Positions 4,085 through 32,000 of a stretch of 32,000 bases of DNA are shown here, piece after piece; the stretch's first letter is position 1; every line of letters starts with the position of its first letter. The stretch is from an uncultured Alphaproteobacteria bacterium (GTDB lineage: Bacteria > Pseudomonadota > Alphaproteobacteria > Rs-D84 > CACZYB01), in the NCBI GenBank assembly GCA_934246625.1, contig CAKQHZ010000001.1, positions 120,001-152,000 on the forward strand, in the 5' to 3' direction. The position numbers and the translations under genes are program-made. Below the pieces are notes generated by a model, which was given only the letters and a program-made list of their open reading frames with translations, made no database searches and was not told where the DNA came from.

Positions 4085-4567
4085 TTATAAATAATTGAAA
4101 ATTATTGACATTATCAAAAGTGAAACTATCGCAAAAACAACTTTTTCAAATGGAAAATGTGCGTGTCCATTGTTTTTTGCCTTTAATCTTTGATATATGC
4201 GTTGAGAAATTTCAAATGTTAATGCTCCAACAGTCATTGAAATAAGAAAACTATCAATTCCAAAGAAGGTATTTAGTTTGTATGGAACAAGTGTATACAT
4301 CGCAGGAACAAGAAGTAATGTTAATAATCCCCAAACAAGATGATAAAATTTAAAGGTCCACTTTTTCATTTCAACAAATTTAATTGTGAAATAATAAGTC
4401 ATTAAAATAAGAGCCCCTATCCAAATACCAGTTGCATTATCGGAAACACCAAGTTGTCTTGAAATTCCAAGAAAGGCACCCATCGCAACTGTGCAAACTG
4501 CACAAGCTGGATTTGCAAAAACTGACTTTGATAAAAATAATGTAAATAAAAATACTAATTTATTCAT
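4085..4567 (-). CDS. hypothetical integral membrane protein with N-terminal signal sequence followed by a CxxC motif
   Basis: 160 aa. Hydrophobic leader ending ...SVFA, then NPACAVC, then about 4 predicted hydrophobic spans. Confidence 0.55.
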   Translation of the reverse strand: MNKLVFLFTLFLSKSVFANPACAVCTVAMGAFLGISRQLGVSDNATGIWIGALILMTYYFTIKFVEMKKWTFKFYHLVWGLLTLLLVPAMYTLVPYKLNTFFGIDSFLISMTVGALTFEISQRIYQRLKAKNNGHAHFPFEKVVFAIVSLLIMSIIFNYL

Positions 4568-4668
4568 AACACTCTCCTTTATTTAAAATTTTTGATATAT
4601 ATCATATACTATCAAGTATTTTTTAACACTTTTAATATTTTATATGAATATTAGAGATTATCAATATT

Positions 4669-5031
4669 TTATTTAATATTATTTTTAAAAACTATTGCCA
4701 CATTTAAGATTTTTGCATCAACCTTTTGTTCCTTTTTATATAGAGCAAGTTTTTTTGGTTGTTCTATAGGCTTTGTTTTAGGCCTTTTCAAAGCAATATC
4801 AAAATTTTTAATATTTGCAATAATTGTATCCAACATATTTATAATATTCTTTATAAACTTAGGGTGAAGTTTTATATCAACTTCTTCTATATTTGCAAGG
4901 ATTTCGTTTATTTCCTCTTGGATTTCATTTTCGGTTTGAATATGTTCAGAATGCCTTCTTGATTCAGAAATCTTTTTAAGTAAGATTTCAAATTCTGTAT
5001 CATGTTTAACTGTATCATGTTTAAAATTCAT
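4669..5031 (-). CDS. hypothetical protein (about 120 aa)
   Basis: The ORF track begins at a GTG at 5064. The ATG at 5031 is preceded by an agaggga RBS and is preferred. The 5' end contains a 15-bp tandem duplication. Confidence 0.45.
   Translation of the reverse strand: MNFKHDTVKHDTEFEILLKKISESRRHSEHIQTENEIQEEINEILANIEEVDIKLHPKFIKNIINMLDTIIANIKNFDIALKRPKTKPIEQPKKLALYKKEQKVDAKILNVAIVFKNNIK
4995..5024. repeat. perfect 15-bp tandem duplication (ctgtatcatgtttaa x2), in frame within the CDS
   Basis: Read directly: 4995-5009 is identical to 5010-5024. On the minus strand it encodes the duplicated peptide KHDTV-KHDTE. Confidence 0.9.
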
Positions 5032-5174
5032 TTTTCCCTCTTTCTCAAAGTAGTATAATACCACTTTTTTGACATTTTCACAAGTTTAAATACAAAAATT
5101 GAAAAAAAATATTGCAAGTCTTTATTTTTAGGTGTATTTTAGCAAAATATTTAATAAAAAATGAAAGTTTAATT

Positions 5175-8327: not shown

Positions 8328-9113
8328 ATGAAAATTTATGATAAAAAAGATTTTGAAGGCCTTAGAGTTGTAGGTGAACTTGCCGCTGACACATTGGATT
8401 ATATTACTGACTTTGTTGTTGCAGGTGTTTCAACATACGATTTGGATAAACTTGTTGCTGAATTTACAAAAAAGCATGGTGCAATATGTGCTCCGTTAGG
8501 TTATATGGGTTATCCAAAAAATTGTTGCATTTCAATAAATGATGTTATTTGTCATGGTATCCCAAACAAACACGAATATCTTAATGATGGAGATATTGTC
8601 AATATTGATGTAACAAGTATTTTAAATGGTTATTATGGTGATACAAGCAGAATGTATTGTGTTGGAAATGTTTCTGATAAAGCACGTGAGCTTGTTGATA
8701 TAACTTATAATTCTATGATGAATGCAATTTCAATTTGCCGTCCAGGAGTGAAACTTTCTGAAATTGGAAAGGTTATTCAAACTATGTGTGAAAAACAAGG
8801 CTTTTCTGTTGTGCGTGATTTTTGTGGTCATGGCACAGGTCAAATTTTTCATGATGAACCTCAAGTTCTTCACTATTATGCAAAGGAAAATGATAATGTT
8901 ATCTTAAAGGAAGGTATGGTATTTACTATTGAACCTATGATTAACACAGGAACTTATGACCTTTATGTTGAAGATAATGATTGGACTGCAAGAACTGCTG
9001 ATGGTGGATTATCTGCACAATTTGAACACACTATTGGTATTACAAAAAATGGTGTGGAAATATTTACTAAATCAAAAAAGGGATTAAATAAACCTCCATA
9101 CAATAAAAAATAA
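8328..9113 (+). CDS. map: type I methionine aminopeptidase
   Basis: ICHGIP, D..NIDVT and FCGHG..... motifs with metal ligands in the canonical order. The second ATG (8328) has the better RBS (aaaggg). The ORF track starts at 8313. Confidence 0.88.
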   Translation: MKIYDKKDFEGLRVVGELAADTLDYITDFVVAGVSTYDLDKLVAEFTKKHGAICAPLGYMGYPKNCCISINDVICHGIPNKHEYLNDGDIVNIDVTSILNGYYGDTSRMYCVGNVSDKARELVDITYNSMMNAISICRPGVKLSEIGKVIQTMCEKQGFSVVRDFCGHGTGQIFHDEPQVLHYYAKENDNVILKEGMVFTIEPMINTGTYDLYVEDNDWTARTADGGLSAQFEHTIGITKNGVEIFTKSKKGLNKPPYNKK

Positions 9114-9125
9114 CAAGGAGTAAAA

Positions 9126-9608
9126 ATGATCGAAATCACAAATATACATTTAACAGACGAAGCCTTTGATAAAATATTAAAAAATCTTCAAAGTGGTGGT
9201 ATATTTATTTCAAATAAAACGGAAAATACCGAACCAAAATTGGAAAATGATAATCCAACAACCGATGAACTTCAATCAAGGGTAAGGTCTTTGTACGAAC
9301 GTTTTTTGAAGTTTAAGGAAGATGAAAAACAACTTGGTATAAAAAAAATAGAATTTGAATACCCAAATTTTGAAAACCAAATCAAACAATTATTTTCTCC
9401 ACAACCTAATTACAAAACATTGGTTACAGATGCAGAAAATACAATGGCAAAACTTGAAAACTCAATTGCATTTGTAAAATCTGCAACGGATACAAAAACA
9501 AATGTTGATAATGCGAAAATGAGGAAACATCTTTTGGATGTAATTTCAAAACTTGATTCAAATATGAAACAACAGTTAATCGCAGATTTAAAACAATTAC
9601 AAAAATAA
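9126..9608 (+). CDS. hypothetical protein (160 aa)
   Basis: ORF with an AGGAG RBS, 12 nt after the map stop. No recognisable motif. Confidence 0.5.
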   Translation: MIEITNIHLTDEAFDKILKNLQSGGIFISNKTENTEPKLENDNPTTDELQSRVRSLYERFLKFKEDEKQLGIKKIEFEYPNFENQIKQLFSPQPNYKTLVTDAENTMAKLENSIAFVKSATDTKTNVDNAKMRKHLLDVISKLDSNMKQQLIADLKQLQK

Positions 9609-9635
9609 ACTAAATAAACGAAAGGAAAAAACTAA

Positions 9636-10556
9636 ATGACAATATATGTTATGGGACATAAAAATCCAGATACAGATACAATAGTTGCAAGTATTGCTTG
9701 TGCTGAACTTTTAAAGGCTCGTGGACTTGATGTAAAGGCTTGCAAACAAGGCGAACTTAATCCAGAATCTCAATTCGTGATTGATACTTTCAAACTTAAT
9801 GACCTTGAAATGATTGAAAGTGTTGAAGGCAAAGATATTGCGATTGTTGATACAACTGAACCTACACAACTTCCTGATGATATTGAAAAAGCAAACATTA
9901 TGTTTGTTGCAGACCACCACAAACTTAGTGGCATTAAAACTACTACTCCTCTTGAAATGTATGTGCAACCTGTGGGTTCTGCTTGCACTGTGCTTTCAAA
10001 TATTTTTGAGTTTGAAGGAGCAAAAATTCCATCTGGTGTGGCTGGTGCAATGATGTGTGCTATTTTATCAGACACCGTTTTATTCAAATCTCCAACAACA
10101 ACAGAATGGGATAAAAAGGCAGTTGAAAAATTAGCAAAGATTGCAGGCATAGAAAAACCTTTGGAACTTGGACTTGAAATGTTAAAGGTTAAATCATCTA
10201 TTGAAAATGATAGTGCAAATGATTTAATCAATCGAGATTTCAAAGAATTTAATATTAAAGGTAAAAAATTTGGTATCGGTCAAATTGAACTTATTGATGG
10301 TTCTATGGCAAAAACAAAAAAGCCTCTTATCCTTGAAGAAATGAAAAAAATTCAACAAGAAAAGGGTTTCAATTCTATCCTTATTTTGATTACAGATATT
10401 ATGAAGGAAGGTTCTGAAATGTTGGTTGTTTCTGATGATATAGAATCAATCGAAAAAGTATTTGGAATCAAATGTGATGAAGAACATTGTGCTTGGATTG
10501 ATGGAATGATGAGCCGAAAGAAACAAGTTATTCCACCACTTGAAACAAAACTTTAA
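9636..10556 (+). CDS. ppaC: manganese-dependent inorganic pyrophosphatase (family II, DHH)
   Basis: N-terminal GHKNPDTDT, VDTTEP, DHHKL, and length of about 306 aa are typical of family II PPases. Confidence 0.85.
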   Translation: MTIYVMGHKNPDTDTIVASIACAELLKARGLDVKACKQGELNPESQFVIDTFKLNDLEMIESVEGKDIAIVDTTEPTQLPDDIEKANIMFVADHHKLSGIKTTTPLEMYVQPVGSACTVLSNIFEFEGAKIPSGVAGAMMCAILSDTVLFKSPTTTEWDKKAVEKLAKIAGIEKPLELGLEMLKVKSSIENDSANDLINRDFKEFNIKGKKFGIGQIELIDGSMAKTKKPLILEEMKKIQQEKGFNSILILITDIMKEGSEMLVVSDDIESIEKVFGIKCDEEHCAWIDGMMSRKKQVIPPLETKL

Positions 10557-10609: not shown

Positions 10610-10638
10610 TTGATAATTATTCAAAAAGAATATATCAT
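10610..10638 (+). promoter_or_regulatory. sigma70-like promoter candidate (TTGATA-17 nt-TATCAT)
   Basis: The hexamers and 17-nt spacer were read directly. The site lies just after the ppaC terminator and upstream of the structured block. AT-rich DNA produces such matches by chance. Confidence 0.35.
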
Positions 10639-10670
10639 AAAATTATGTTTAGGAATTTTTCTTAAACTAG

Positions 10671-10848
10671 CGTCCATAAATGGATGTGGGACTGTCGAAA
10701 GTCTTTTATACAGCTAGTGCATCGATGCACTTTAAGGTCATATCCCTGTTGTCGGGGAACCCTTGACGTATGTCCAGAGGATATGTTCGCATATTCTTAA
10801 AGGTCATGTGGAATTATCTAGCTGTATATAATTTTCGAACTTCCCCGT
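10671..10848 (+). ncRNA. candidate structured RNA (6S-like architecture or cis-regulatory leader), class unknown
   Basis: Locally G+C-enriched block inside the largest non-coding gap. It has nested helices, including a perfect 11-bp long-range pairing 10707-10717 with 10818-10828. G-U pairs favour the plus strand. See the findings. Confidence 0.45.
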
Positions 10849-10915
10849 CATTTATCTGATGCGAATGGGAAAAATAAATCTTGCAATTTATTGTAAGGTT
10901 AACAGGGGAAAGACT

Positions 10916-11326
10916 ATGAAAAAATCGATAATTTTATCGTGTGTTTTTTGCACGATTTTATCCGTAAGTAATCATACCTATGCAGGAAATTCGTCTGCTT
11001 TATCCGAAGTATTATCAAAATATTGTGTGCCAAAAGATAGCTCTATTTGTGGGTCAAAAAATATTGCCACATACAATACTCGTTTAAGTGCGTGTGAATG
11101 TGCTGTATTAGGTATGTATTACGATGTCAAAGAACGTAAATGTTTAAATTGTCCGATTGGCACTGTTGCATTTACAAAAACATCTACCAAATGTTCGAAT
11201 ATTCAATGTAAACCTGGATATGTTGGCAAACTTATTACAAATAATTGTCCAGCAGGATATATTAAAAAGGAAATTACAAAGAATAGCTGTCCTCGTGGCA
11301 CAACATTATGGAGCTTTCCAAAATAA
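10916..11326 (+). CDS. secreted cysteine-rich repeat protein (C-x2-C-P-x-G-T / C-[KP]-x-G-Y type repeats)
   Basis: The ATG at 10916 has a ggggaaag RBS and gives a signal peptide MKKSIILSCVFCTILSVSNHTYA. The mature part has 10 Cys, in motifs CLNCPIGT, CKPGY, CPAGY and CPRGT. The ORF-track start at 10859 is unlikely. Confidence 0.6.
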   Translation: MKKSIILSCVFCTILSVSNHTYAGNSSALSEVLSKYCVPKDSSICGSKNIATYNTRLSACECAVLGMYYDVKERKCLNCPIGTVAFTKTSTKCSNIQCKPGYVGKLITNNCPAGYIKKEITKNSCPRGTTLWSFPK

Positions 11327-11459
11327 TTGATTTATGGGGGAAAATTTTAACATAGTTTTATTTTCTCCCTCCCTTAAAATAACAAGCTAAAAACTTGTAG
11401 CGGTTCATTATGATGGTAAGTGAACCAAAAGTTAACACCATCAAAAAAGGAGTAAAAAT

Positions 11460-12320
11460 ATGGGAAATAAAAAGGCTATGAACCTTGCTTTTGCTATTGT
11501 AGGGGCAAGTTTATTTAATGTAGGCGAAGTTTCTGCGCAAACATTTTTCCAATGTATTGCTTGTGAAGCAGGAACATACGAATCAAATGGAAATTGTGCA
11601 AAATGCCCAAGTGGAACATTTTCTTCTGTAAGTGGAGCAAGCTCATCTTTGGTATGTCAACCTTGTCAAGCAGGACATTATTGTCCAGAAGGTGCACAAA
11701 TTGAATATTCTTGTCCAAAGGGCACCTATTCAGATAAAAACTATGCAACATCTTGTAAAAAATGTTCTAAAGGTTATTACAATGATAAAGTAGGTCAAAC
11801 AGCATGTCAACAATGCTTTGGAAATTACTATTCTAATGCAGAAGGAAGTGAAAGATGTCAATATTGGGATCCTAATGATTTTGGAATATTTTATGGAAAA
11901 GAAGATGGAAAGTATATAAGAGATAATAAAGGCTCAATTATTTATTCTGCTGAAATTCCTGAAGTAGATTGTGCAGGAATCTTTTGTAGAGATAAATACG
12001 ATAGTGGAATATGGTGCAAAAACGACTTTTTTGAGATAGACCCAGCATCACATGTAAGAAAAGTTTGTGGATTATCAATAGGTGGAGGTTCAGCTTGTAA
12101 GGTTAGGGCTGATAATAGTACTGCTGGTGGTTGTTGTCATAATATAGAATATGTAGTTGCAACTGAAGATACTCAAATACATATTGATGATGGATTTGCT
12201 TCACATTTATATGGATATAAAAAAATATGGGGAGATAGAGGAACATATTATATATATCCAGATGGACATATTGAAAAAAGAGATAAATATGCTGATGAAG
12301 CAAACGCAAATGCAAAATAA
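11460..12320 (+). CDS. secreted cysteine-rich protein with ephrin-receptor-like / GCC2_GCC3-type repeats
   Basis: AGGAG RBS. The signal peptide ends ...GEVSA. There are six consecutive C-x2-C-x2-G-x-[YF]-like units (CIACEAGTY, CAKCPSGTF, CQPCQAGHY, CPKGTY, CKKCSKGYY, CQQCFGNYY) and 20 Cys in total. Confidence 0.65.
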   Translation: MGNKKAMNLAFAIVGASLFNVGEVSAQTFFQCIACEAGTYESNGNCAKCPSGTFSSVSGASSSLVCQPCQAGHYCPEGAQIEYSCPKGTYSDKNYATSCKKCSKGYYNDKVGQTACQQCFGNYYSNAEGSERCQYWDPNDFGIFYGKEDGKYIRDNKGSIIYSAEIPEVDCAGIFCRDKYDSGIWCKNDFFEIDPASHVRKVCGLSIGGGSACKVRADNSTAGGCCHNIEYVVATEDTQIHIDDGFASHLYGYKKIWGDRGTYYIYPDGHIEKRDKYADEANANAK

Positions 12321-12358
12321 AAAAAAAATCCCTCAGTCAAAACTGGGGGATAATTTTT
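12321..12358. terminator. bidirectional intrinsic terminator shared by convergent genes
   Basis: An A run, then hairpin atccctcag-tcaaaa-ctgggggat (9 bp including one G-U), then a T-rich run. Confidence 0.75.
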
Positions 12359-12370
12359 ATAAAAAATAAC

Positions 12371-12550
12371 TTATTTGTTATCTTCTGAAATTGCAGATAC
12401 AGGACAATTTTCAGCACATGTTCCACAATTTACACATTTTTCAGGATCGATTTCATATCCGCCATCTTTGAATGATACAGCAGATTGTGGGCAAATTGCT
12501 TCACATTGACCACATGAAATACAAATACTTTTATCTATTTTATAAGCCAT
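12371..12550 (-). CDS. fdx: 2x[4Fe-4S] clostridial-type ferredoxin (59 aa), absent from the supplied ORF track
   Basis: Hand translation gives MAYKIDKSICISCGQCEAICPQSAVSFKDGGYEIDPEKCVNCGTCAENCPVSAISEDNK. It has two CxxCxxCxxxCP motifs and an AGGAG RBS 6 nt upstream. Confidence 0.9.
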   Translation of the reverse strand: MAYKIDKSICISCGQCEAICPQSAVSFKDGGYEIDPEKCVNCGTCAENCPVSAISEDNK

Positions 12551-18292: not shown

Positions 18293-20284
18293 TTATTTTT
18301 TTACACCAAAAGCACCATTTATTTTTACAAAATCTGTGGTGTTAATATCAAAAATTCCAACGGCCTCTTCTGGCTTACCAGCCTCTACTCCATAAAGTTT
18401 TCCTGAAAGATTTCCTGTAATACCACTTGATGGTGCAGTAATAAGAATATCTGAAGATTTTAGTGTATTATCAACAGACACAGTTGAACCAGTCAAAGAA
18501 AATCCAGATGTATTTTCAAGGTTTATGTCTGAAAAACTAAAGGTATACCATTTATCAAAATTAAGTGTTAACTTACCTTTTGCCTCTTGATTTAAAACTG
18601 ATAAAGTTGCAGTTCCGGATAAATCCTTTCTTACATCACCCTTTGTTGCAGAACCAAAAGTCTTTCCCTTAAATACAGTAGTTGTATTTATACCAGCGGT
18701 TGTTTGTTTTGTAAAATTTGTTTCAAATTGGTTAAAGCCAGTAAAGAAAGGTGTGTCAAAATAATAGTAATTGTTTTTAGCTTCGGTATCCTTTTTCGCA
18801 AGCAATAAATCCTTATCTCCTGTAAATGTAGTTGCACCCTTTATTGTCCATAAGCCAAAGTCAGAATAAGATAGTCCCAATGCTCTTCCACCAATTTTTA
18901 CAATATCTGTAATGGTGTTTTCCTTTGTAATATCAAAATTTGCAGATACCTTTGATAAAATAGATAAAGCTGTTTTGATATCATTTGTATTTGTAATTTT
19001 ATCACCAATAGCATAGCTTGTGCCAAACCAATTATTAAATAAATTCATTTCTTCTTGGGTTGGAGAAACGTTATATTGAATATTTTTAATTAAATTTTCT
19101 GCATACTTTCTTCGGGTTTGAACATCAAAACTTCCCCCTGCATTCAAATATGATTTAAGGTTTGGCAAAAATGTATATGATACTTGTGAAGATGTATAGT
19201 TTCCATCTTTCTTTTCCGCCATATAATAATTTGTGCCTATTTTAAAATCAGATGCCTTAAAAGCAACAGTTCGATTTTTTATATGATTTGTATCACTACT
19301 TAAATCTTTTAATGTAAGAATATAGTCTTTATTCACACTGTCATAAGAAAAGACAACAGCCTTATCTGAAGATGTGTCAGAAAATGATTTTGCCGTATAT
19401 GAATTATCACTTAATGTTGGAATTTTAACATAACCTTCAAGATTTTCAATCGCACTTAAAATATTTTTTTCAAGCAAATAATATTTCATTAAGGTTTCTA
19501 TTGTTAATGGAAAATCTGTAATAGAACTATCCACAACTTTTATTTTTGCAAGAAGGTCTGCTTTCTTTGATGTTAAATTTGAAGATGCCGTTGAAATTGC
19601 AGTTGAAAGTTCAGAATATAATGTATTAAATTGTGCTTCTATATTTGTAGTTGAAAGAGTATCTGTTTTCCCTAATGCCTTTTGAATAGCAGTTGCCCAA
19701 CCAAGAAGAGTTTGTTCAACATATTCTTTACGTGATAATTTAGAAAAATCAGCATACGTATTTGCGACAATAGAATTTAATCTTACCGCAAAACCATTTA
19801 TATCTTCAGTTGCACTATCTCTGTTTGTATATTTGCCATTATATTTCAATGGGACATAAGTGTCTTTAGACTTATTATACTTGGTTAATACAGGAAGATA
19901 GTTATTATTATATTCGTTAAGAGCATTTTGTAAATTTGTCTTTCGTGTTGCAATGGTTGATTTATCATCCAATACCTTTGATGCAATAGAAAAGTTTGAA
20001 TCACTTATTGTAATTTTATTTTCAGATGTTGCTTTTGCATTATATTTTTCAAACGCACTTTTTATTTTTGCTTTATTTGCTGTTTTTAAATTTGTGGCAA
20101 ATTTATTTGTATCAATAAATGTTTTAGACACCGAAGATGATGAAGAGGAACCTGAAGAACCTGATGAACCAGAAGGTCTTGGGGTATGTGTAGCAGATGG
20201 AGAAGAACTTCCATTACCACTTGAACAATTTGCCAAACAAAGAATTGCATTTAATAATGTAATGTATTTAAAAGTGTTGTTCAT
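18293..20284 (-). CDS. surface lipoprotein with C-terminal TbpB/fHbp-like beta-barrel signature
   Basis: Lipobox LCLANC followed by a Ser/Gly-rich linker. The C-terminus GKLYGVEAGKPEEAVGIFD....INGAFGVKK resembles the terminal strands of TbpB/HpuA/fHbp-type barrels. Confidence 0.5.
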   Translation of the reverse strand: MNNTFKYITLLNAILCLANCSSGNGSSSPSATHTPRPSGSSGSSGSSSSSSVSKTFIDTNKFATNLKTANKAKIKSAFEKYNAKATSENKITISDSNFSIASKVLDDKSTIATRKTNLQNALNEYNNNYLPVLTKYNKSKDTYVPLKYNGKYTNRDSATEDINGFAVRLNSIVANTYADFSKLSRKEYVEQTLLGWATAIQKALGKTDTLSTTNIEAQFNTLYSELSTAISTASSNLTSKKADLLAKIKVVDSSITDFPLTIETLMKYYLLEKNILSAIENLEGYVKIPTLSDNSYTAKSFSDTSSDKAVVFSYDSVNKDYILTLKDLSSDTNHIKNRTVAFKASDFKIGTNYYMAEKKDGNYTSSQVSYTFLPNLKSYLNAGGSFDVQTRRKYAENLIKNIQYNVSPTQEEMNLFNNWFGTSYAIGDKITNTNDIKTALSILSKVSANFDITKENTITDIVKIGGRALGLSYSDFGLWTIKGATTFTGDKDLLLAKKDTEAKNNYYYFDTPFFTGFNQFETNFTKQTTAGINTTTVFKGKTFGSATKGDVRKDLSGTATLSVLNQEAKGKLTLNFDKWYTFSFSDINLENTSGFSLTGSTVSVDNTLKSSDILITAPSSGITGNLSGKLYGVEAGKPEEAVGIFDINTTDFVKINGAFGVKK

Positions 20285-25426: not shown

Positions 25427-26998
25427 ATGAATAAAAATTTAAAGAATAAACAACATAAAAACAATAAGATACTTTTTGCAATTCTATTTTCTACTATATT
25501 AGTTAGTGGTGCAAAGGCAAGTATTCTAACAAATACAAATAACTTTTCACATATCGAAAAGCAAAATATTACTTCAACTTCATTTTATGATTTTGCAATC
25601 AAAGATAAGGTTAAGGATATTTTTGATAATATTGAAGATAAGAAAATTGATTTATCAAATTATACTCCATCACCATTTGAAATACAGGGAAGATTTGAAA
25701 CAAATTGGAATGTAAATAATTATTGGAACGGAAATGACAATGGTGGTGTGGCCGTTGGTCCATTTCAAATACATTCTCGATATATGCTTGTTCCTTTTTT
25801 TGAATATCTAAAGGAAAATAACACCTATTATTTTGATTTATTAAATGCAAATGGTGGTGTAAAAGCTATACGTCATAATGATGCAAATATGAAAAAATTC
25901 TTTTGTGAGCTTTGTCAAAAAGATAAGGAATTTGTTAAACTTCAAGCCCAATTTATTGATAAAAATAACTTTCAACCAAGACTTAAGGTTTTGAAAAATC
26001 AATATGGACTTGATATTTCAAAAAGAAGTAAATCTATTGAGGGATTATTCAGAACTATGTCTGCAAACATAGGTTGGAAAACAAATTATGTTGTTGAAGA
26101 AATGATAAGGGAAATTGGTGCCGAACAATTAAACCATATCTCGGATAAGGAATTTATTGAAGTTCTTCATAACTCTCTTACAAAAGTTTTAAATGAAAAA
26201 ATTCAAAAAAGGTTTAGAGCTCATTTGCTTTCTGCTTATGATGCAACAATCAAAAATGATGTTATACCAAACCTTTATAAACCTATGTTAACAAAAACTG
26301 AAAAATCATATCAAGAATATCAAAACAGAAATCAAAAGGCAAAAAGTGTTATAGCATCTTTGCAAATGTTTTTTGATGCAGATTTTATAAAAATGGAACA
26401 AAATAATTTTATAAAAATCATTTCAGAAGATACATCTGCTAACTTTGTGAAATCAAAAAAGATTATTATGCAATCAATTACAAAGCATATGACTCAAAAT
26501 TACAAATTTGATATTGCAAAAAATAAAACTGTTGCAGAAAAGAAAAAGCAATCTGTAAAAATCGTTAAACAAGATATATTTGTAAAAAATGATGACGATG
26601 TAAATACAGATACTCCTATTTTCGAACAAAAAAAGGAAGCTCTTCCACCAAAGAAAAATGATATAATCACAGTTGAAAGTGTTATTGCGAAAAACCAAAA
26701 CCCAAGACCTTCTTTGCTTAGAAAAGCTGAAATTATTCGTATGAATGAACTTCTTGAAAATGCGGTAAATATTATGAACGGCAAAAATGAAAAGATTTCA
26801 AAAAAGACTATTGAAACAACAAATCATACATCAACAATACATCAAACAAAAAAATCTTTGTATGCCGAAAAACGTGCAAATGAACTTAATGTCGAAAATA
26901 TAATTACAAAGGCGAAATCAAGAAAAGATAATGGGGCAATAAAACCTCAAAATGACTTTTCTGCTTTATTAAAAGAAGCCTCAAGTTATATTATTTAA
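25427..26998 (+). CDS. secreted protein, N-terminal lysozyme-like (GH108-like E...D-x-G-G) candidate domain, K/N-rich C-terminal half
   Basis: Signal peptide ILFAILFSTILVSGAKA. FETNWNVNNYWNGNDNGGVAVGPFQI resembles the Glu ... D-x-G-G-x-[TA]-x-x-G pattern of phage-type muramidases. The assignment is tentative. Confidence 0.35.
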   Translation: MNKNLKNKQHKNNKILFAILFSTILVSGAKASILTNTNNFSHIEKQNITSTSFYDFAIKDKVKDIFDNIEDKKIDLSNYTPSPFEIQGRFETNWNVNNYWNGNDNGGVAVGPFQIHSRYMLVPFFEYLKENNTYYFDLLNANGGVKAIRHNDANMKKFFCELCQKDKEFVKLQAQFIDKNNFQPRLKVLKNQYGLDISKRSKSIEGLFRTMSANIGWKTNYVVEEMIREIGAEQLNHISDKEFIEVLHNSLTKVLNEKIQKRFRAHLLSAYDATIKNDVIPNLYKPMLTKTEKSYQEYQNRNQKAKSVIASLQMFFDADFIKMEQNNFIKIISEDTSANFVKSKKIIMQSITKHMTQNYKFDIAKNKTVAEKKKQSVKIVKQDIFVKNDDDVNTDTPIFEQKKEALPPKKNDIITVESVIAKNQNPRPSLLRKAEIIRMNELLENAVNIMNGKNEKISKKTIETTNHTSTIHQTKKSLYAEKRANELNVENIITKAKSRKDNGAIKPQNDFSALLKEASSYII

Positions 26999-27713
26999 GT
27001 TCGGTTTTATCAAGAAGACATTTTGAATTTGGGTGATTACAAATGTTTATCAATGGATATGCCTTTGTATCACCTATTTTTTGATAATGCCACCATTCGC
27101 GTTTAATGCCACGAAATCCAGCTTCTGTCATAATGGATTTAAGAAGGTCCCTATTTTTGCACTTATATTCTTCATCTTTTTTGCATTGATAATTACTTGC
27201 GGATTCTGGAACAAAGCTATCAACAGCTGATACAAATTCTAACTTTTTACCATTTTCATCAGCAAGTCCAATATCCAAAGCCAACCCCTTTGAATGGAGA
27301 GAACCTGATTTAAAGGGATTTGAAAGAAATAATGGATTTGGGTCAAGTTTCCACATATACATTTGTGCTTCGTGTGGACGAAAACAATCATACATCACTG
27401 CACGTAATCTTTTTTGTTTTAAAATTTGCTCTAATTTTTGCATATTTGGATATATGTCCTTATGAACATAACAATCATTTATACCAAACTTATAATAAAA
27501 GGCATGATGCAAAAAATTATTATCACGATTATATGACAAATCATTTATAAAATATGGTGAGGTTATTTTGACCAAAGAAAATGATTTTTCAATAAAATCA
27601 ATGGGTAAAGTTGCTTGCATTTCATTTTGTGCAGAAATTTTATTTTTTATACCAAAGATAGTTAAAAACATTATAAAAAAACAGAAAAATGAGATAAAAA
27701 AAGTTTTTTTCAT
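26991..27713 (-). CDS. ddpX: D-alanyl-D-alanine dipeptidase, VanX/DdpX family (peptidase M15D), with N-terminal signal sequence
   Basis: SLHSKGLALD (SxHxxGxAxD) and EWWH zinc/catalytic motifs. Hydrophobic leader FFISFFCFFIMFLTIFGI ... ISA. Confidence 0.8.
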   Translation of the reverse strand: MKKTFFISFFCFFIMFLTIFGIKNKISAQNEMQATLPIDFIEKSFSLVKITSPYFINDLSYNRDNNFLHHAFYYKFGINDCYVHKDIYPNMQKLEQILKQKRLRAVMYDCFRPHEAQMYMWKLDPNPLFLSNPFKSGSLHSKGLALDIGLADENGKKLEFVSAVDSFVPESASNYQCKKDEEYKCKNRDLLKSIMTEAGFRGIKREWWHYQKIGDTKAYPLINICNHPNSKCLLDKTELK

Positions 27714-28825: not shown

Positions 28826-28853
28826 AAAAGAGAGTTTTTTAACTCTCTTTTTT
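28826..28853. terminator. bidirectional terminator hairpin overlapping the 3' end of the VirB6-like CDS
   Basis: 11-bp hairpin aaaagagagtt-tttt-aactctctttt with U-rich flanks on both strands. Confidence 0.7.
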
Positions 28854-31319
28854 ATTTAGGGCTTCAAGTTTTGGAGCCTTTTGTTTTGATTTACGTTTTT
28901 TATAATTTTTAATTTCTTGTTGAACGAAATCTTCTATGGTATCGGAATCATATTCATCAATACTTTCGAAATCCTTTCTTATTTTACGTAATTTTTTATT
29001 TAACATAGAAAGTTTTCTGCGGTCCATAAAAATAACATCTTTGTTCATTTCATTTTCAATTTCAGAAGTAAGACTTTCAACTTCGTTATTCTTTAAAATC
29101 AAATATAAATCCTTCGCATTGATTTCATTTTTGTGATATTTTTGAAGATTTTCACGGAATGCGACATAAGACTTCATTCCCTCAAGACGCTTTTGTTCCT
29201 TATAGTTTTTAGATTTTACTTCGGCTTCAACTTCGTTTAAAAGTTTTCTGTGCTCTGGTATAATTTTACCACCTTGATTTATATATTTTATCAAAGCACG
29301 TTTTTGATTACGTCCTATGGTATCACTGTTCCTTATATAATTTTCCATTTCTTGTTTAAATATATCAGATTTAACCTTTGCAAATGGATTATCATTTTGT
29401 GGATTTTGAGAATCATTTTTGACATCACTAACAACTTTTTTAAGATGTTCATTGTTATTTACCAAATCTTGATTTTCCATATAATCATCAGAAAGAACGA
29501 TATCTTGAAGCATTGTTTTTTCTGTATCATCAAGCTGTTTATAGCTTTCATATTTTTCAAGTGCGGTATCAATTTTTTCATTTTGACGTTGACGAGTTTC
29601 ATTATACTTTTTTGAACGTTCTTCGTATTCCTTTTTAACCTCGTCTGTGGATTTTGTTTTATATGGACCTTCATTATCTGTTTCAGGAGCGAATTCAGAA
29701 TCATCAAGATTTTTTCCATTTTCATAAAGGTCTACTGCCTCATCAATAGGAATATCAAAAACAGTAATATCTTCGTTATTACGTTGTTTTTCTTTAAGTT
29801 TTCTTTTTGCTTCGAATTCATTATTAAATTTGTCTTTTAAAGCTTCTGATTTAAGATAACTGTTGGCTTCTCTTGAAACACCATTTTTAACATATCGAAT
29901 TGTGCTTATTGTAATATTTTTAAGTCCGTTTAAAATAGTATCCTCACCTACACCACTTCCAATGGCAGAGCTGAACTTTCCAGCCATAGAATTGCTTTCT
30001 GATAACAAATAATATGAAATAAGACATACAAACATAGATGAAATTATAATTGTTGGATTAAGCAATATTGTTGCAAGAATTTGATTTGTATCACTGAATA
30101 AATTGACACCATTAAATATTGATGAAGCAGTTACAATTTTTCCGTCATTACCAAGCGAATCCAATAATGATTTTAAAGTTATATCAAATGGTCCAGCATT
30201 AAAATTTGTAGTTAAAAGTTCGTTTAATAAATAAGTTGATATGGTCATAGCAACCGATAAAAATGCTATTCTGAAAGTGCATTGGACGACATTAAAGAAT
30301 AATGGCTTTGATAATTGTCCTCGGGTATTTTTAAATGTCCACGCACCTATTGTGATTGGCATCATAACACCAACCATTGCAAGTTTAACAACTATATCTA
30401 AAAGAATAAGTAAATATGTAAAGGCTATATATAAAAATGCAACTGCGATACAAAGTCCAATAAAAAATGTTAAAACATTCGCAAGAAATGTTATTACCAA
30501 ATATATTTTTATAAAAAACATTATTATGGTATAAAGAATACCCCAGCCACCAAGTTTTGATAAAACCAAATTTTCAATCGTTTGCACGGCTGTTGTATTA
30601 TATACAAAATCCAAAAGTTTAAATTCACCCATACCTATGCCTGCACGAGCCATTATTTTCAAACCTAATTGACTTCCTGCATTATACGTATTTTCATATT
30701 CACGAGTAATGCACATAAGATTACGTAAAGTTTCTTCGTTTGCACTCATTTCATCAACAGATAAATTTGTTTTTTGATAATGGTTTAATACCTTTGTAGC
30801 ATAACTTGATAATTTAACATCATCACAAGAAAAATTTTGAACCTTAAAGCCACCTAAAAAACTATCAGTAGAAACATTAAATAATTCGGTATCGGCCCTT
30901 GCCTCTGTTAAAACCCATTTTGCAAAATTGGGTCCCATATTCATAATTGGGTCAATGGTATAGCTGAAAATTTCCTTTGCAGGAAGTGAAAGAAATGAAA
31001 GCACAAATGTATAAGCCAATAATTTTACAAAAACTTCTTTTAAAAAAGAAAATGTATTACCCTTTTGCTCCTTTATCGCATTAGTCCAAATATACCAAAT
31101 AAACCAAAATGCCATTGCGATAATAAGAATTTTTTGAAGTATTGGAACAAACTTATCATACAATTTATATACAAAATTAAAGACATATACATATATACCC
31201 TCAAGTATATTACAGCCCCAACAATTTTGTAGTTGTTGTGAAGAAGTATCACTTGCAAATAAAACATTGCTGGACAACAAAAACAATAATGAAAACCACA
31301 ATAATAATTTTTTCTTCAT
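28839..31319 (-). CDS. virB6: TrbL/VirB6-like type IV secretion inner-membrane channel protein with about 350-aa charged C-terminal extension
   Basis: 826 aa. Signal peptide, then a multi-span hydrophobic block of about 420 aa in TrbL/VirB6 style, then a K/E/N/D-rich hydrophilic tail. The aagga RBS lies within the end of the upstream paralog. Confidence 0.6.
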   Translation of the reverse strand: MKKKLLLWFSLLFLLSSNVLFASDTSSQQLQNCWGCNILEGIYVYVFNFVYKLYDKFVPILQKILIIAMAFWFIWYIWTNAIKEQKGNTFSFLKEVFVKLLAYTFVLSFLSLPAKEIFSYTIDPIMNMGPNFAKWVLTEARADTELFNVSTDSFLGGFKVQNFSCDDVKLSSYATKVLNHYQKTNLSVDEMSANEETLRNLMCITREYENTYNAGSQLGLKIMARAGIGMGEFKLLDFVYNTTAVQTIENLVLSKLGGWGILYTIIMFFIKIYLVITFLANVLTFFIGLCIAVAFLYIAFTYLLILLDIVVKLAMVGVMMPITIGAWTFKNTRGQLSKPLFFNVVQCTFRIAFLSVAMTISTYLLNELLTTNFNAGPFDITLKSLLDSLGNDGKIVTASSIFNGVNLFSDTNQILATILLNPTIIISSMFVCLISYYLLSESNSMAGKFSSAIGSGVGEDTILNGLKNITISTIRYVKNGVSREANSYLKSEALKDKFNNEFEAKRKLKEKQRNNEDITVFDIPIDEAVDLYENGKNLDDSEFAPETDNEGPYKTKSTDEVKKEYEERSKKYNETRQRQNEKIDTALEKYESYKQLDDTEKTMLQDIVLSDDYMENQDLVNNNEHLKKVVSDVKNDSQNPQNDNPFAKVKSDIFKQEMENYIRNSDTIGRNQKRALIKYINQGGKIIPEHRKLLNEVEAEVKSKNYKEQKRLEGMKSYVAFRENLQKYHKNEINAKDLYLILKNNEVESLTSEIENEMNKDVIFMDRRKLSMLNKKLRKIRKDFESIDEYDSDTIEDFVQQEIKNYKKRKSKQKAPKLEALNKKES

Positions 31320-31320
31320 T

Positions 31321-32000
31321 TTATGTATTATCCTTTATTTGTTCGTCCAAATCATTTGCATCTTCACGAAGAGCTTCGAATTTCTTTATTATATCAGATG
31401 TATCTTTTTTTAACAACTTTGTTGTTATTTCACGACCAAATGATTTTGCCCAAGTGCGAGTTGAATTAACAAGTTTTAAGAAGGTTCCGCCAACTTTAAA
31501 CATATAACCACTTACTATTCCTGAATAAGTATCAAGATTTCCCATAATCATCAATGAAAGTAAGCCAAGTGTGAATATAGGGAAAAAACTTCCTCCTGGG
31601 TTTTGAAGACTTGGCATTTCAAAAAGTATATCCTTTGATACTAAACAAGATTGTATTTTTGAAACATTCCCATTCGCAAGGTTAAAGCAATTTGCAAAGG
31701 CTTCGCTTTTCATTAAGGTATCTGTTTGACTTGCAACCAAATCATTATAAATAAAATCAGGAAACAAGTATGTGAAATTATCAAGTGGCCCTGGGTAATA
31801 CATATCACCAATAAAAATAAATGATGAATATATAATGCCTAAAAATATACAATACATAATGATTTTAAATGCCATACCAAACAAAGACTTAAATCCAGTT
31901 GATGAAAACTTTTTTGTTTCGTCATAGGCATAACCCGCCAACATCACAGGAACAAATGCAATTAAAATTCCGATTGTAAAAACTATATCAATCAAAGTAA
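31321..32000 (-). CDS. second polytopic membrane protein, probable VirB6/TrbL paralog (N-terminus outside the window)
   Basis: The frame is open to the window edge and the track's start at 31995 is a TTG. It has several hydrophobic spans plus a charged tail. Its stop lies 1 nt before the start of the downstream VirB6-like gene. Confidence 0.45.
   Translation of the reverse strand, partial: TLIDIVFTIGILIAFVPVMLAGYAYDETKKFSSTGFKSLFGMAFKIIMYCIFLGIIYSSFIFIGDMYYPGPLDNFTYLFPDFIYNDLVASQTDTLMKSEAFANCFNLANGNVSKIQSCLVSKDILFEMPSLQNPGGSFFPIFTLGLLSLMIMGNLDTYSGIVSGYMFKVGGTFLKLVNSTRTWAKSFGREITTKLLKKDTSDIIKKFEALREDANDLDEQIKDNT

Follow-up and report, generated by a model that had tools for sequence, protein, structure and literature searches.

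The window analyzed here, a stretch of 32,000 nucleotides from an uncultured Alphaproteobacteria bacterium (assembly GCA_934246625.1, contig CAKQHZ010000001.1), encodes two adjacent cysteine-rich proteins with predicted signal peptides, P1 and P2, of which P2 is hypervariable between strains and under positive diversifying selection. The locus is best described as that of a strain-hypervariable exported protein that combines eukaryote-type cysteine-rich repeats, rarely used in bacteria, with an orphan head. We favor the hypothesis, to which we assign a probability of roughly 0.55, that P2 is a Sec-exported, disulfide-stabilized extracytoplasmic protein in which a conserved rod carries a diversifying head that acts as a recognition surface. 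Four other explanations were considered and judged to be less likely. Both open reading frames (ORFs) that an earlier note had described in this DNA are present, and the parts of the locus on which the argument turns are the following.

10916..11326, forward strand: P1 ORF of 136 aa, a predicted exported protein with a signal peptide in residues 1-23, followed by 10 cysteines.
11460..12320, forward strand: P2 ORF of 286 aa, with a strong AAGGAG ahead of its start.
11460..11537, forward strand: predicted P2 signal peptide, residues 1-26, with cleavage between VSA and Q, followed by the conserved motif QTFFQC.
11550..11864, forward strand: P2 stalk, Ephrin_rec_like/TNFR-like cysteine-rich repeats, residues ~31-135, with 13 cysteines.
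11865..12317, forward strand: P2 head, residues 136-286, a beta-rich orphan domain at the C-terminus in which 5 cysteines are conserved.
11964..12149, forward strand: hypervariable core of P2, residues 169-230, with three cysteine-anchored loops, in-frame indels and cassette-like shuffling.

The variation between strains is sharply localized. Nucleotide diversity is about 0.01 along 17 kb and 0.1-0.35 across positions 11640-12420, with peaks of 0.22-0.35 in the hypervariable core, where entropy is also highest, compared to about 0.01 in the flanks. P2 proteins are 72-90% identical between strains, whereas the flanking proteins are 97-100% identical. The ratio of nonsynonymous to synonymous substitution rates (dN/dS) was estimated pairwise by the Nei-Gojobori method for eight alleles from strains with flanking proteins of 97-100% identity and P2 proteins of 68-92%, and 24 P2 alleles were included in the protein comparison. 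For P2 as a whole the ratio is 1.6, and it reaches 4.0 in residues 99-135, 4.5 in residues 136-168 and 2.9 in residues 231-272. In the flanking genes dS is 0.04-0.05 (0.007 in the short ferredoxin gene) and dN/dS is 0.03-0.19 where defined; dS in residues 99-168 and 231-272 of P2 is at or below this background. Nonsynonymous and synonymous changes number 180 and 30 in P2, compared to 36 and 121 in six flanking genes taken together (odds ratio 20, p 4e-35), and the bootstrap intervals for dN-dS lie above zero for the whole gene as well as for residues 99-168 and 231-286. By this pairwise counting of eight alleles, P2 is under positive diversifying selection; the near identity of the flanks makes this signal unusually clean. 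In residues 169-230, where the alignment is uncertain, dN and dS are both about 0.2, which suggests old allelic lineages or imported segments.

The diversity is carried on a conserved framework. All 24 alleles have an intact ORF with indels that are in-frame only, and all have kept 18 of the 20 cysteines as a framework. Hardly any change is seen in the signal peptide and in residues 27-98, and the cysteines of the repeat units do not vary. The three loops of the core, around residues 171-183, 187-200 and 207-228, occur as discrete variants in recombined combinations, and the variable loops are the same as those with a low predicted local distance difference test (pLDDT) score in the structural model of the head.

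It could be argued that P2 is a periplasmic metal-binding or redox protein rich in cysteines, with a C-terminal part that has simply come under relaxed constraint. The CxxC-x10-14-CxxC spacing resembles zinc-ribbon knuckles, an outer-membrane export signal was not seen, and the organism appears to be anaerobic, as indicated by ferredoxin and glycolysis. However, the dN/dS of residues 99-168 and 231-286 is not close to 1 but significantly higher than 1, every ORF is intact and has kept its framework and cysteines, and the homology is to disulfide-bonded extracellular modules. We consider this explanation decidedly improbable.

Recombination has contributed to the allelic diversity, and the four-gamete test indicates at least 22 recombination events (Rm 22) within the 860 bp of P2. 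Several contigs from different samples carry identical alleles, which argues against a pure assembly artifact. Extreme localization, high dN/dS and cassette-like, mosaic segments would also be seen if the variation were programmed, either by a diversity-generating retroelement or by gene conversion from silent cassettes elsewhere in the genome. Within the 32-kb window, however, we found neither a reverse transcriptase nor a repeat of the variable region, and the substitution rates per base (A 0.22, C 0.46, G 0.30 and T 0.21) show no adenine bias, which together make a retroelement unlikely. Furthermore, the in-frame indels and the spread of the variation over ~600 bp do not fit such an element, and fragments of P2 were not found elsewhere in the protein collections. 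Programmed variation is to us the least probable of the four alternatives.

The conserved part of P2 can be assigned to a known family. The Pfam model Ephrin_rec_like (PF07699) matches P2 in three stretches with 41 bits (E 1.7e-10), compared to a cut-off of 23.1, and precomputed matches to the same model exist for all 10 of the 10 homologs with 68-92% identity. This agrees with the family proposed in the earlier note, which had also counted six C-x2-C-x2-G-x-[YF] units. Four of these are exact (C32, C46, C66 and C99), but the other two are degenerate (CPKGTY at C85 and CQQCFGNYY at C116), so that the count was overstated. Nor does the resemblance that had been pointed out to tumor necrosis factor receptor (TNFR) modules and to the variant surface proteins (VSPs) of Giardia amount to membership, since the scores are below the Pfam cut-offs for both TNFR_c6 (19.5 vs. 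29.4 bits) and VSP (10.9 vs. 31.4 bits). P2 is likewise below the cut-off for NCD3G, and NCBIfam contains no family for P1 or P2.

A search of the PDB with a profile of P2 and its homologs identified the Chlamydomonas mastigoneme protein Mst1 (8tx1) as the best match, with an E-value of 3e-18 and with Mst1 residues 1212-1815 aligned to P2 residues 31-135. The next match was TNFRSF9 (~5e-4), followed by weaker matches to thyroglobulin, CaSR and ELAPOR1. The matched region of Mst1 consists of tandem ephrin-receptor-like cysteine-rich domains that form a disulfide ladder with a spacing of ~11 A, to which its authors have tied robustness in the extracellular environment (PMC10602792). By analogy, residues ~31-135 of P2 may form a short disulfide-laddered rod. 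The AlphaFold2 (AF2) model of full-length P2, built with 11 close homologs, was too poor for use (pLDDT 49.9).

The C-terminal part is of another kind. Among 1.84 billion representatives, its 156 residues match two clusters, namely P2's own and that of a protein from a more distant lineage, P0089 (38% identity), and no domain was identified in Pfam, NCBIfam or PHROG. An AF2 model of the head alone (pLDDT 61.9, predicted template modeling score 0.62) has a beta core of moderate confidence surrounded by low-confidence loops, and a search with this model against PDB and BFVD gave no significant fold match (best E 0.76).

A conserved N-terminus joined to a variable C-terminus, with a signal peptide and strong positive selection, is also compatible with a polymorphic secreted toxin or bacteriocin, in which a conserved delivery part would carry a variable killing domain for competition between strains. 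The same applies to a family with identical signal peptides and divergent mature parts in the metagenome-assembled genome (MAG) GCA_051885355.1. Yet a toxin domain with an adjacent immunity gene was looked for at P2 and was not found: the downstream neighbor is the convergent, invariant ferredoxin gene, and the head contains no toxin, PHROG or Pfam domain. Searches of plasmid and phage collections with tblastn, and of the PHROGs, identified no relatives of P2. The variation, moreover, is at the level of loops on a conserved framework and not a replacement of domains. We regard a toxin as rather improbable.

Export of both proteins is predicted from their N-termini, in line with the earlier note. 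P1 begins with MKK, a hydrophobic core and TYA followed by G, and P2 with MGNKK, a core and VSA followed by Q; as read from the sequence, both fit the Sec pathway and signal peptidase I. The signal peptide is not followed by a lipobox or a membrane-spanning segment in either protein. A lipoprotein was defined by a lipobox, [LVI][ASTVI][GAS]C, that closes an adequate hydrophobic stretch. The first cysteine of P2 is at residue 32, and C9 and C12 of P1 are located within a short hydrophobic core for which the homolog on the related contig L014 has no cysteine, so that neither protein was classified as a lipoprotein. There are 12 cysteines in P1, of which two are in the signal peptide and 10 in the mature protein, and 20 in P2, of which 13 are in residues 32-133 and seven in the C-terminal part, just as had been counted before. 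P2 would be exported beyond the inner membrane, to the surface or the extracellular space, and its disulfides are predicted from the signal peptide and the homology to the ladder of Mst1.

The distribution of the pair is narrow. Close homologs of P2 (68-92% identical) are all located in the order ppaC-P1-P2-fdx on contigs that elsewhere hardly differ from the window, one of which is from a Hadza human-gut assembly. The gene order pfk-map-ppaC is shared with six related species (ppaC 69-80% identical), but the genes downstream of ppaC are others in five of the six; in the sixth, L014, a P1 homolog (48%) is found before the contig ends. A scan of GTDB representative genomes with P2 peptides identified no homolog, a result to which the need for an exact 8-mer or masked stretches may contribute, and a scan of JGI metagenomes recovered a single 1-kb fragment. 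The more distant MAG, GCA_051885355.1, contains P0089 and three paralogs (P0089-P0092), which have a near-identical signal peptide and a QTF[FY]QC start as in P2, but differ in their cysteine-rich mature parts; one of these paralogs passes the Ephrin_rec_like cut-off. Outside this lineage, P2 is most closely related to a Myxococcales MAG protein that has nine bona fide repeats.

The paralogs in GCA_051885355.1 have features of their own. P0089-P0091 are each located 700-1100 nt from a contig end (L018 1-1105, L019 1-740 and L020 1-933) and are preceded by a mosaic of repeated modules, 80-100% identical between the loci, with an RBS-like AAGGAGG, an ATG, a short ORF and a very GC-rich hairpin. 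Two of the paralogs in this MAG are followed by a convergent gene for an 82-aa HTH_3 protein.

In the literature, Ephrin_rec_like repeats are considered to be eukaryotic in origin and the rare bacterial cases are interpreted as horizontal transfers (PMC6993872), which upholds the eukaryotic character that had been claimed for the family; beyond this passing mention, literature searches on bacterial Ephrin_rec_like or TNFR-like proteins gave essentially nothing relevant. One hypothesis is therefore that P1 and P2 are eukaryote-mimicking factors for interaction with a host, transferred from a eukaryote such as the host or a gut protist and perhaps connected with type IV secretion. The best solved relatives of P2 are eukaryotic (Mst1, TNFRSF9, thyroglobulin and CaSR), the occurrence of the pair in related gut MAGs is patchy, and a polytopic ORF on the adjacent strand and a weak TrbL match are located 17 kb away. 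On the other hand, the composition of P2 (GC 0.338, GC3 0.118, codon-usage distance 0.11) is native and typical of the window, which speaks, on composition, against a recent horizontal transfer. The nearest outside relative is bacterial, the variable head is without relatives, eukaryotic or other, and P1 does not reach significance for the repeat family.

The proposed type IV connection concerned two genes near the window end. One is an 826-aa ORF (28839-31319, reverse strand) with a signal-like start, about six hydrophobic segments, a long hydrophilic tail and no Pfam match; the other (31321-32000, reverse strand) is truncated by the window end and matches TrbL/VirB6 below the threshold (15.2 vs. 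25.9 bits, E 0.019). These may possibly be tandem VirB6-like genes, but with one sub-threshold match and one polytopic ORF as their basis, the VirB6 assignment in the earlier note was too strong. Nothing links P1 and P2 to these ORFs, which are separated from them by 17 kb with housekeeping genes, and proteins with Sec signals are not typical type IV substrates. In favor of the claim about host interaction, the strong diversifying selection on P2 fits a role in interaction or at an exposed surface. Mimicry of eukaryotes by way of transfer is in our view unlikely.

We favor instead the hypothesis of a conserved rod with a diversifying head. The rod would consist of three Ephrin_rec_like (GCC2/GCC3, TNFR-like) domains, corresponding to about six cysteine sub-repeats, and would carry the beta-rich head, which is restricted to this lineage. 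Positive selection and recombination between circulating alleles would diversify the head loops, the final repeats of the rod and the C-terminal tail, and it is this diversification that leads us to interpret the head as an exposed recognition surface in antagonistic co-evolution. The head might either be recognized itself, by host secretory antibody, phage or competitor, or bind to a variable partner. Together, the rod and the invariant N-terminal elements (signal peptide and QTFFQC start) would supply export, protease-resistant stability and possibly docking, while P1, encoded behind a structured leader RNA, would be a probable functional partner. We infer an arms race from these patterns, with a host antibody, a phage, a competitor or a variable ligand as its potential selective agent.

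Several considerations weigh against this interpretation. No anchor (lipobox, membrane-spanning segment or sorting motif) and no outer-membrane export route are visible for P2, which could thus stay in the periplasm of a diderm cell, where an arms race is less expected. The CxxC...CxxC spacing could also bind metal, and export and disulfides are only predicted. The alleles are all from metagenome assemblies, so some of the mosaicism could be chimeric assembly. Finally, a pairwise Nei-Gojobori analysis of eight alleles differs from a site-model test, and the alignment of residues 169-230 is uncertain.

A bolder version of the hypothesis is that a eukaryote-derived rod of the TNFR/ephrin-receptor type displays an orphan recognition domain in an arms race with host immunity, a protist host or phages, as a bacterial counterpart of the protozoan variant surface proteins, with P1 controlled by a previously undescribed riboswitch-like RNA. 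Taken as a whole, this scenario appears doubtful to us.

P1 differs from P2 in its mode of evolution, with a dN/dS of 0.21 that indicates purifying selection. The homologs are 48% (L014) and 35% (P0015) identical to P1; eight cysteines are invariant among them, and C37 and C60 have been lost together in L014. The view in the earlier note that P1 is a degenerate member of the repeat family was not demonstrable, the Ephrin_rec_like score being 10.3 bits (E 0.65) for P1, below the cut-off of 23.1, and 16.3 bits for the L014 homolog, with no match for P0015. An alignment of P1 and P2 with hhalign (E 1.2e-4, probability 56%) is suggestive of a weak relationship. We hypothesize that P1, a conserved neighbor of P2, is probably its functional partner.

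P1 starts with an ATG at 10916, preceded by GGGGAAAG, and 136 aa is also its length in most gene calls of public assemblies. The spacer between ppaC and P1 is 360 nt long and includes a promoter-like site and an RNA structure of ~200 nt. These two and the remaining signals around the pair are as follows.

10610..10638, forward strand: candidate sigma-70-like promoter (TTGATA-17-TATCAT) upstream of the leader and P1, with 10 of 12 consensus positions.
10668..10868, forward strand: conserved structured RNA, the P1 5' leader, with a long closing helix and a multi-way junction.
11327..11459, forward strand: intergenic region between P1 and P2, in which the sequence shows two hairpins and the P2 ribosome-binding site (AAGGAG); a T-run terminator was not called here.
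12328..12351, forward strand: terminator-like hairpin, common to P2 and the convergent ferredoxin gene.

The promoter candidate is a consensus match only, with the same hexamers and spacing upstream of the P1 homolog in L014. The leader has a minimum free energy of -87.4 kcal/mol (z = -5.4) and no match in Rfam. Homologs of it precede the P1 homologs at L014 7017-7230 (nhmmer E 5e-21) and L022 ~126-330, and RNAalifold on the three lineages predicts 73 pairs, of which seven have compensatory double changes. Its invariant motif was not found in IMG/VR. Because the leader is far better conserved than the protein that follows it (48% identical in L014 and 35% in L022), it is a candidate for a riboswitch-like leader or a noncoding RNA, and thereby a candidate cis-regulatory RNA for P1 and possibly also for P2.

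The window as a whole is AT-rich (about 30% GC). P1 and P2 are placed between ppaC, for a family II pyrophosphatase, and the convergent ferredoxin gene, among alphaproteobacterial housekeeping genes that also include accA, xth, typA, pfk, map, a CcrM methyltransferase gene, rlmD and a MATE transporter gene. A 523-aa protein with a VgrG3-like C-terminal domain of the peptidoglycan-hydrolase type (25427-26998, forward strand) adjoins an M15 D-Ala-D-Ala dipeptidase (26991-27713, reverse strand), with LicD upstream, and this group looks like genes related to the cell wall or to antagonism.

Other peaks of diversity were observed in the window. A gene-replacement polymorphism is located at 9074-9650, where a 160-aa protein (9126-9608, forward strand) is replaced in L003 by a 100-aa ORF (32% identity) and is absent from L015 and L017. 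The same protein is 89% identical in L011, a different species with a ppaC of only 74% identity, and replacement within the species together with this identity suggests a small mobile or exchanged gene. Smaller peaks are seen at 4500-5073 and 20021-20220. The former surrounds a small ORF (4669-5064, reverse strand) with a 5-residue in-frame indel and differing start positions in the gene calls. The latter is a secondary hotspot of strain variation in the N-terminal region of a 663-aa protein (18293-20284, reverse strand), which has no family match and a lipoprotein-like N-terminus followed by a Ser/Gly-rich linker.

Uncultured Alphaproteobacteria of the gut have hardly been studied, and the present locus directs attention to the molecule with which they may meet an antagonist or partner most directly. 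P2 is one of a very small number of bacterial proteins in which Ephrin_rec_like repeats are bona fide, and it combines these with a domain known from two protein clusters among the 1.84 billion. Should the head prove to be an antigen or receptor-binding tip, P2 could serve as a strain-typing marker and as a handle on the interacting host, phage or microbe, and the leader upstream of P1 would add a candidate new cis-regulatory RNA.

In its mode of evolution, P2 is comparable to the type IV pilins and to phage-receptor or adhesin tips, which share with it a conserved N-terminus, a variable C-terminus with cysteine-anchored loops, an excess of dN over dS, and mosaic alleles made by recombination. 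Unlike these, however, P2 lacks a prepilin motif, its neighborhood contains no pilus or fimbrial genes, and it resembles them in neither sequence nor fold. Likewise, an invariant signal peptide in front of a diversifying mature part is a pattern known from the conotoxins and defensins, but these are animal families and the likeness is one of evolutionary pattern rather than of homology.

In structure, the closest parallel is with Mst1 and the eukaryotic Ephrin_rec_like arrays, with which P2 shares the CxxCxxGxY rhythm and, by prediction, an extracellular location; the likeness to Mst1 also makes a disulfide-ladder rod probable for P2. In contrast to the eukaryotic arrays, the bacterial P2 is very short: it has three domains, it lacks any Ig, Sushi or kinase context, and its repeats are fused to an orphan variable head. 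A profile of P2 also spans four cysteine-rich modules of TNFRSF9/4-1BB (E 5e-4), and TNF-receptor domains are similarly elongated modules of ligand-binding ectodomains. However, the scores for TNFR_c6 (19.5 vs. 29.4 bits) and TNFR_ELAPOR1_6th (22.1 vs. 33.2 bits) are below the cut-offs, and the repeats in P2 are the conserved and not the variable part. Finally, P2 resembles the Giardia VSPs in being CXXC-rich, exported by prediction and from a gut inhabitant, with conserved and variable parts and an antigen-like variability. It differs from them in its Pfam VSP score (10.9 vs. 31.4 bits) and in the absence of a C-terminal membrane anchor or conserved tail, and whereas Giardia switches among hundreds of VSP paralogs, P2 is a single-copy gene that varies between strains by mutation and recombination.

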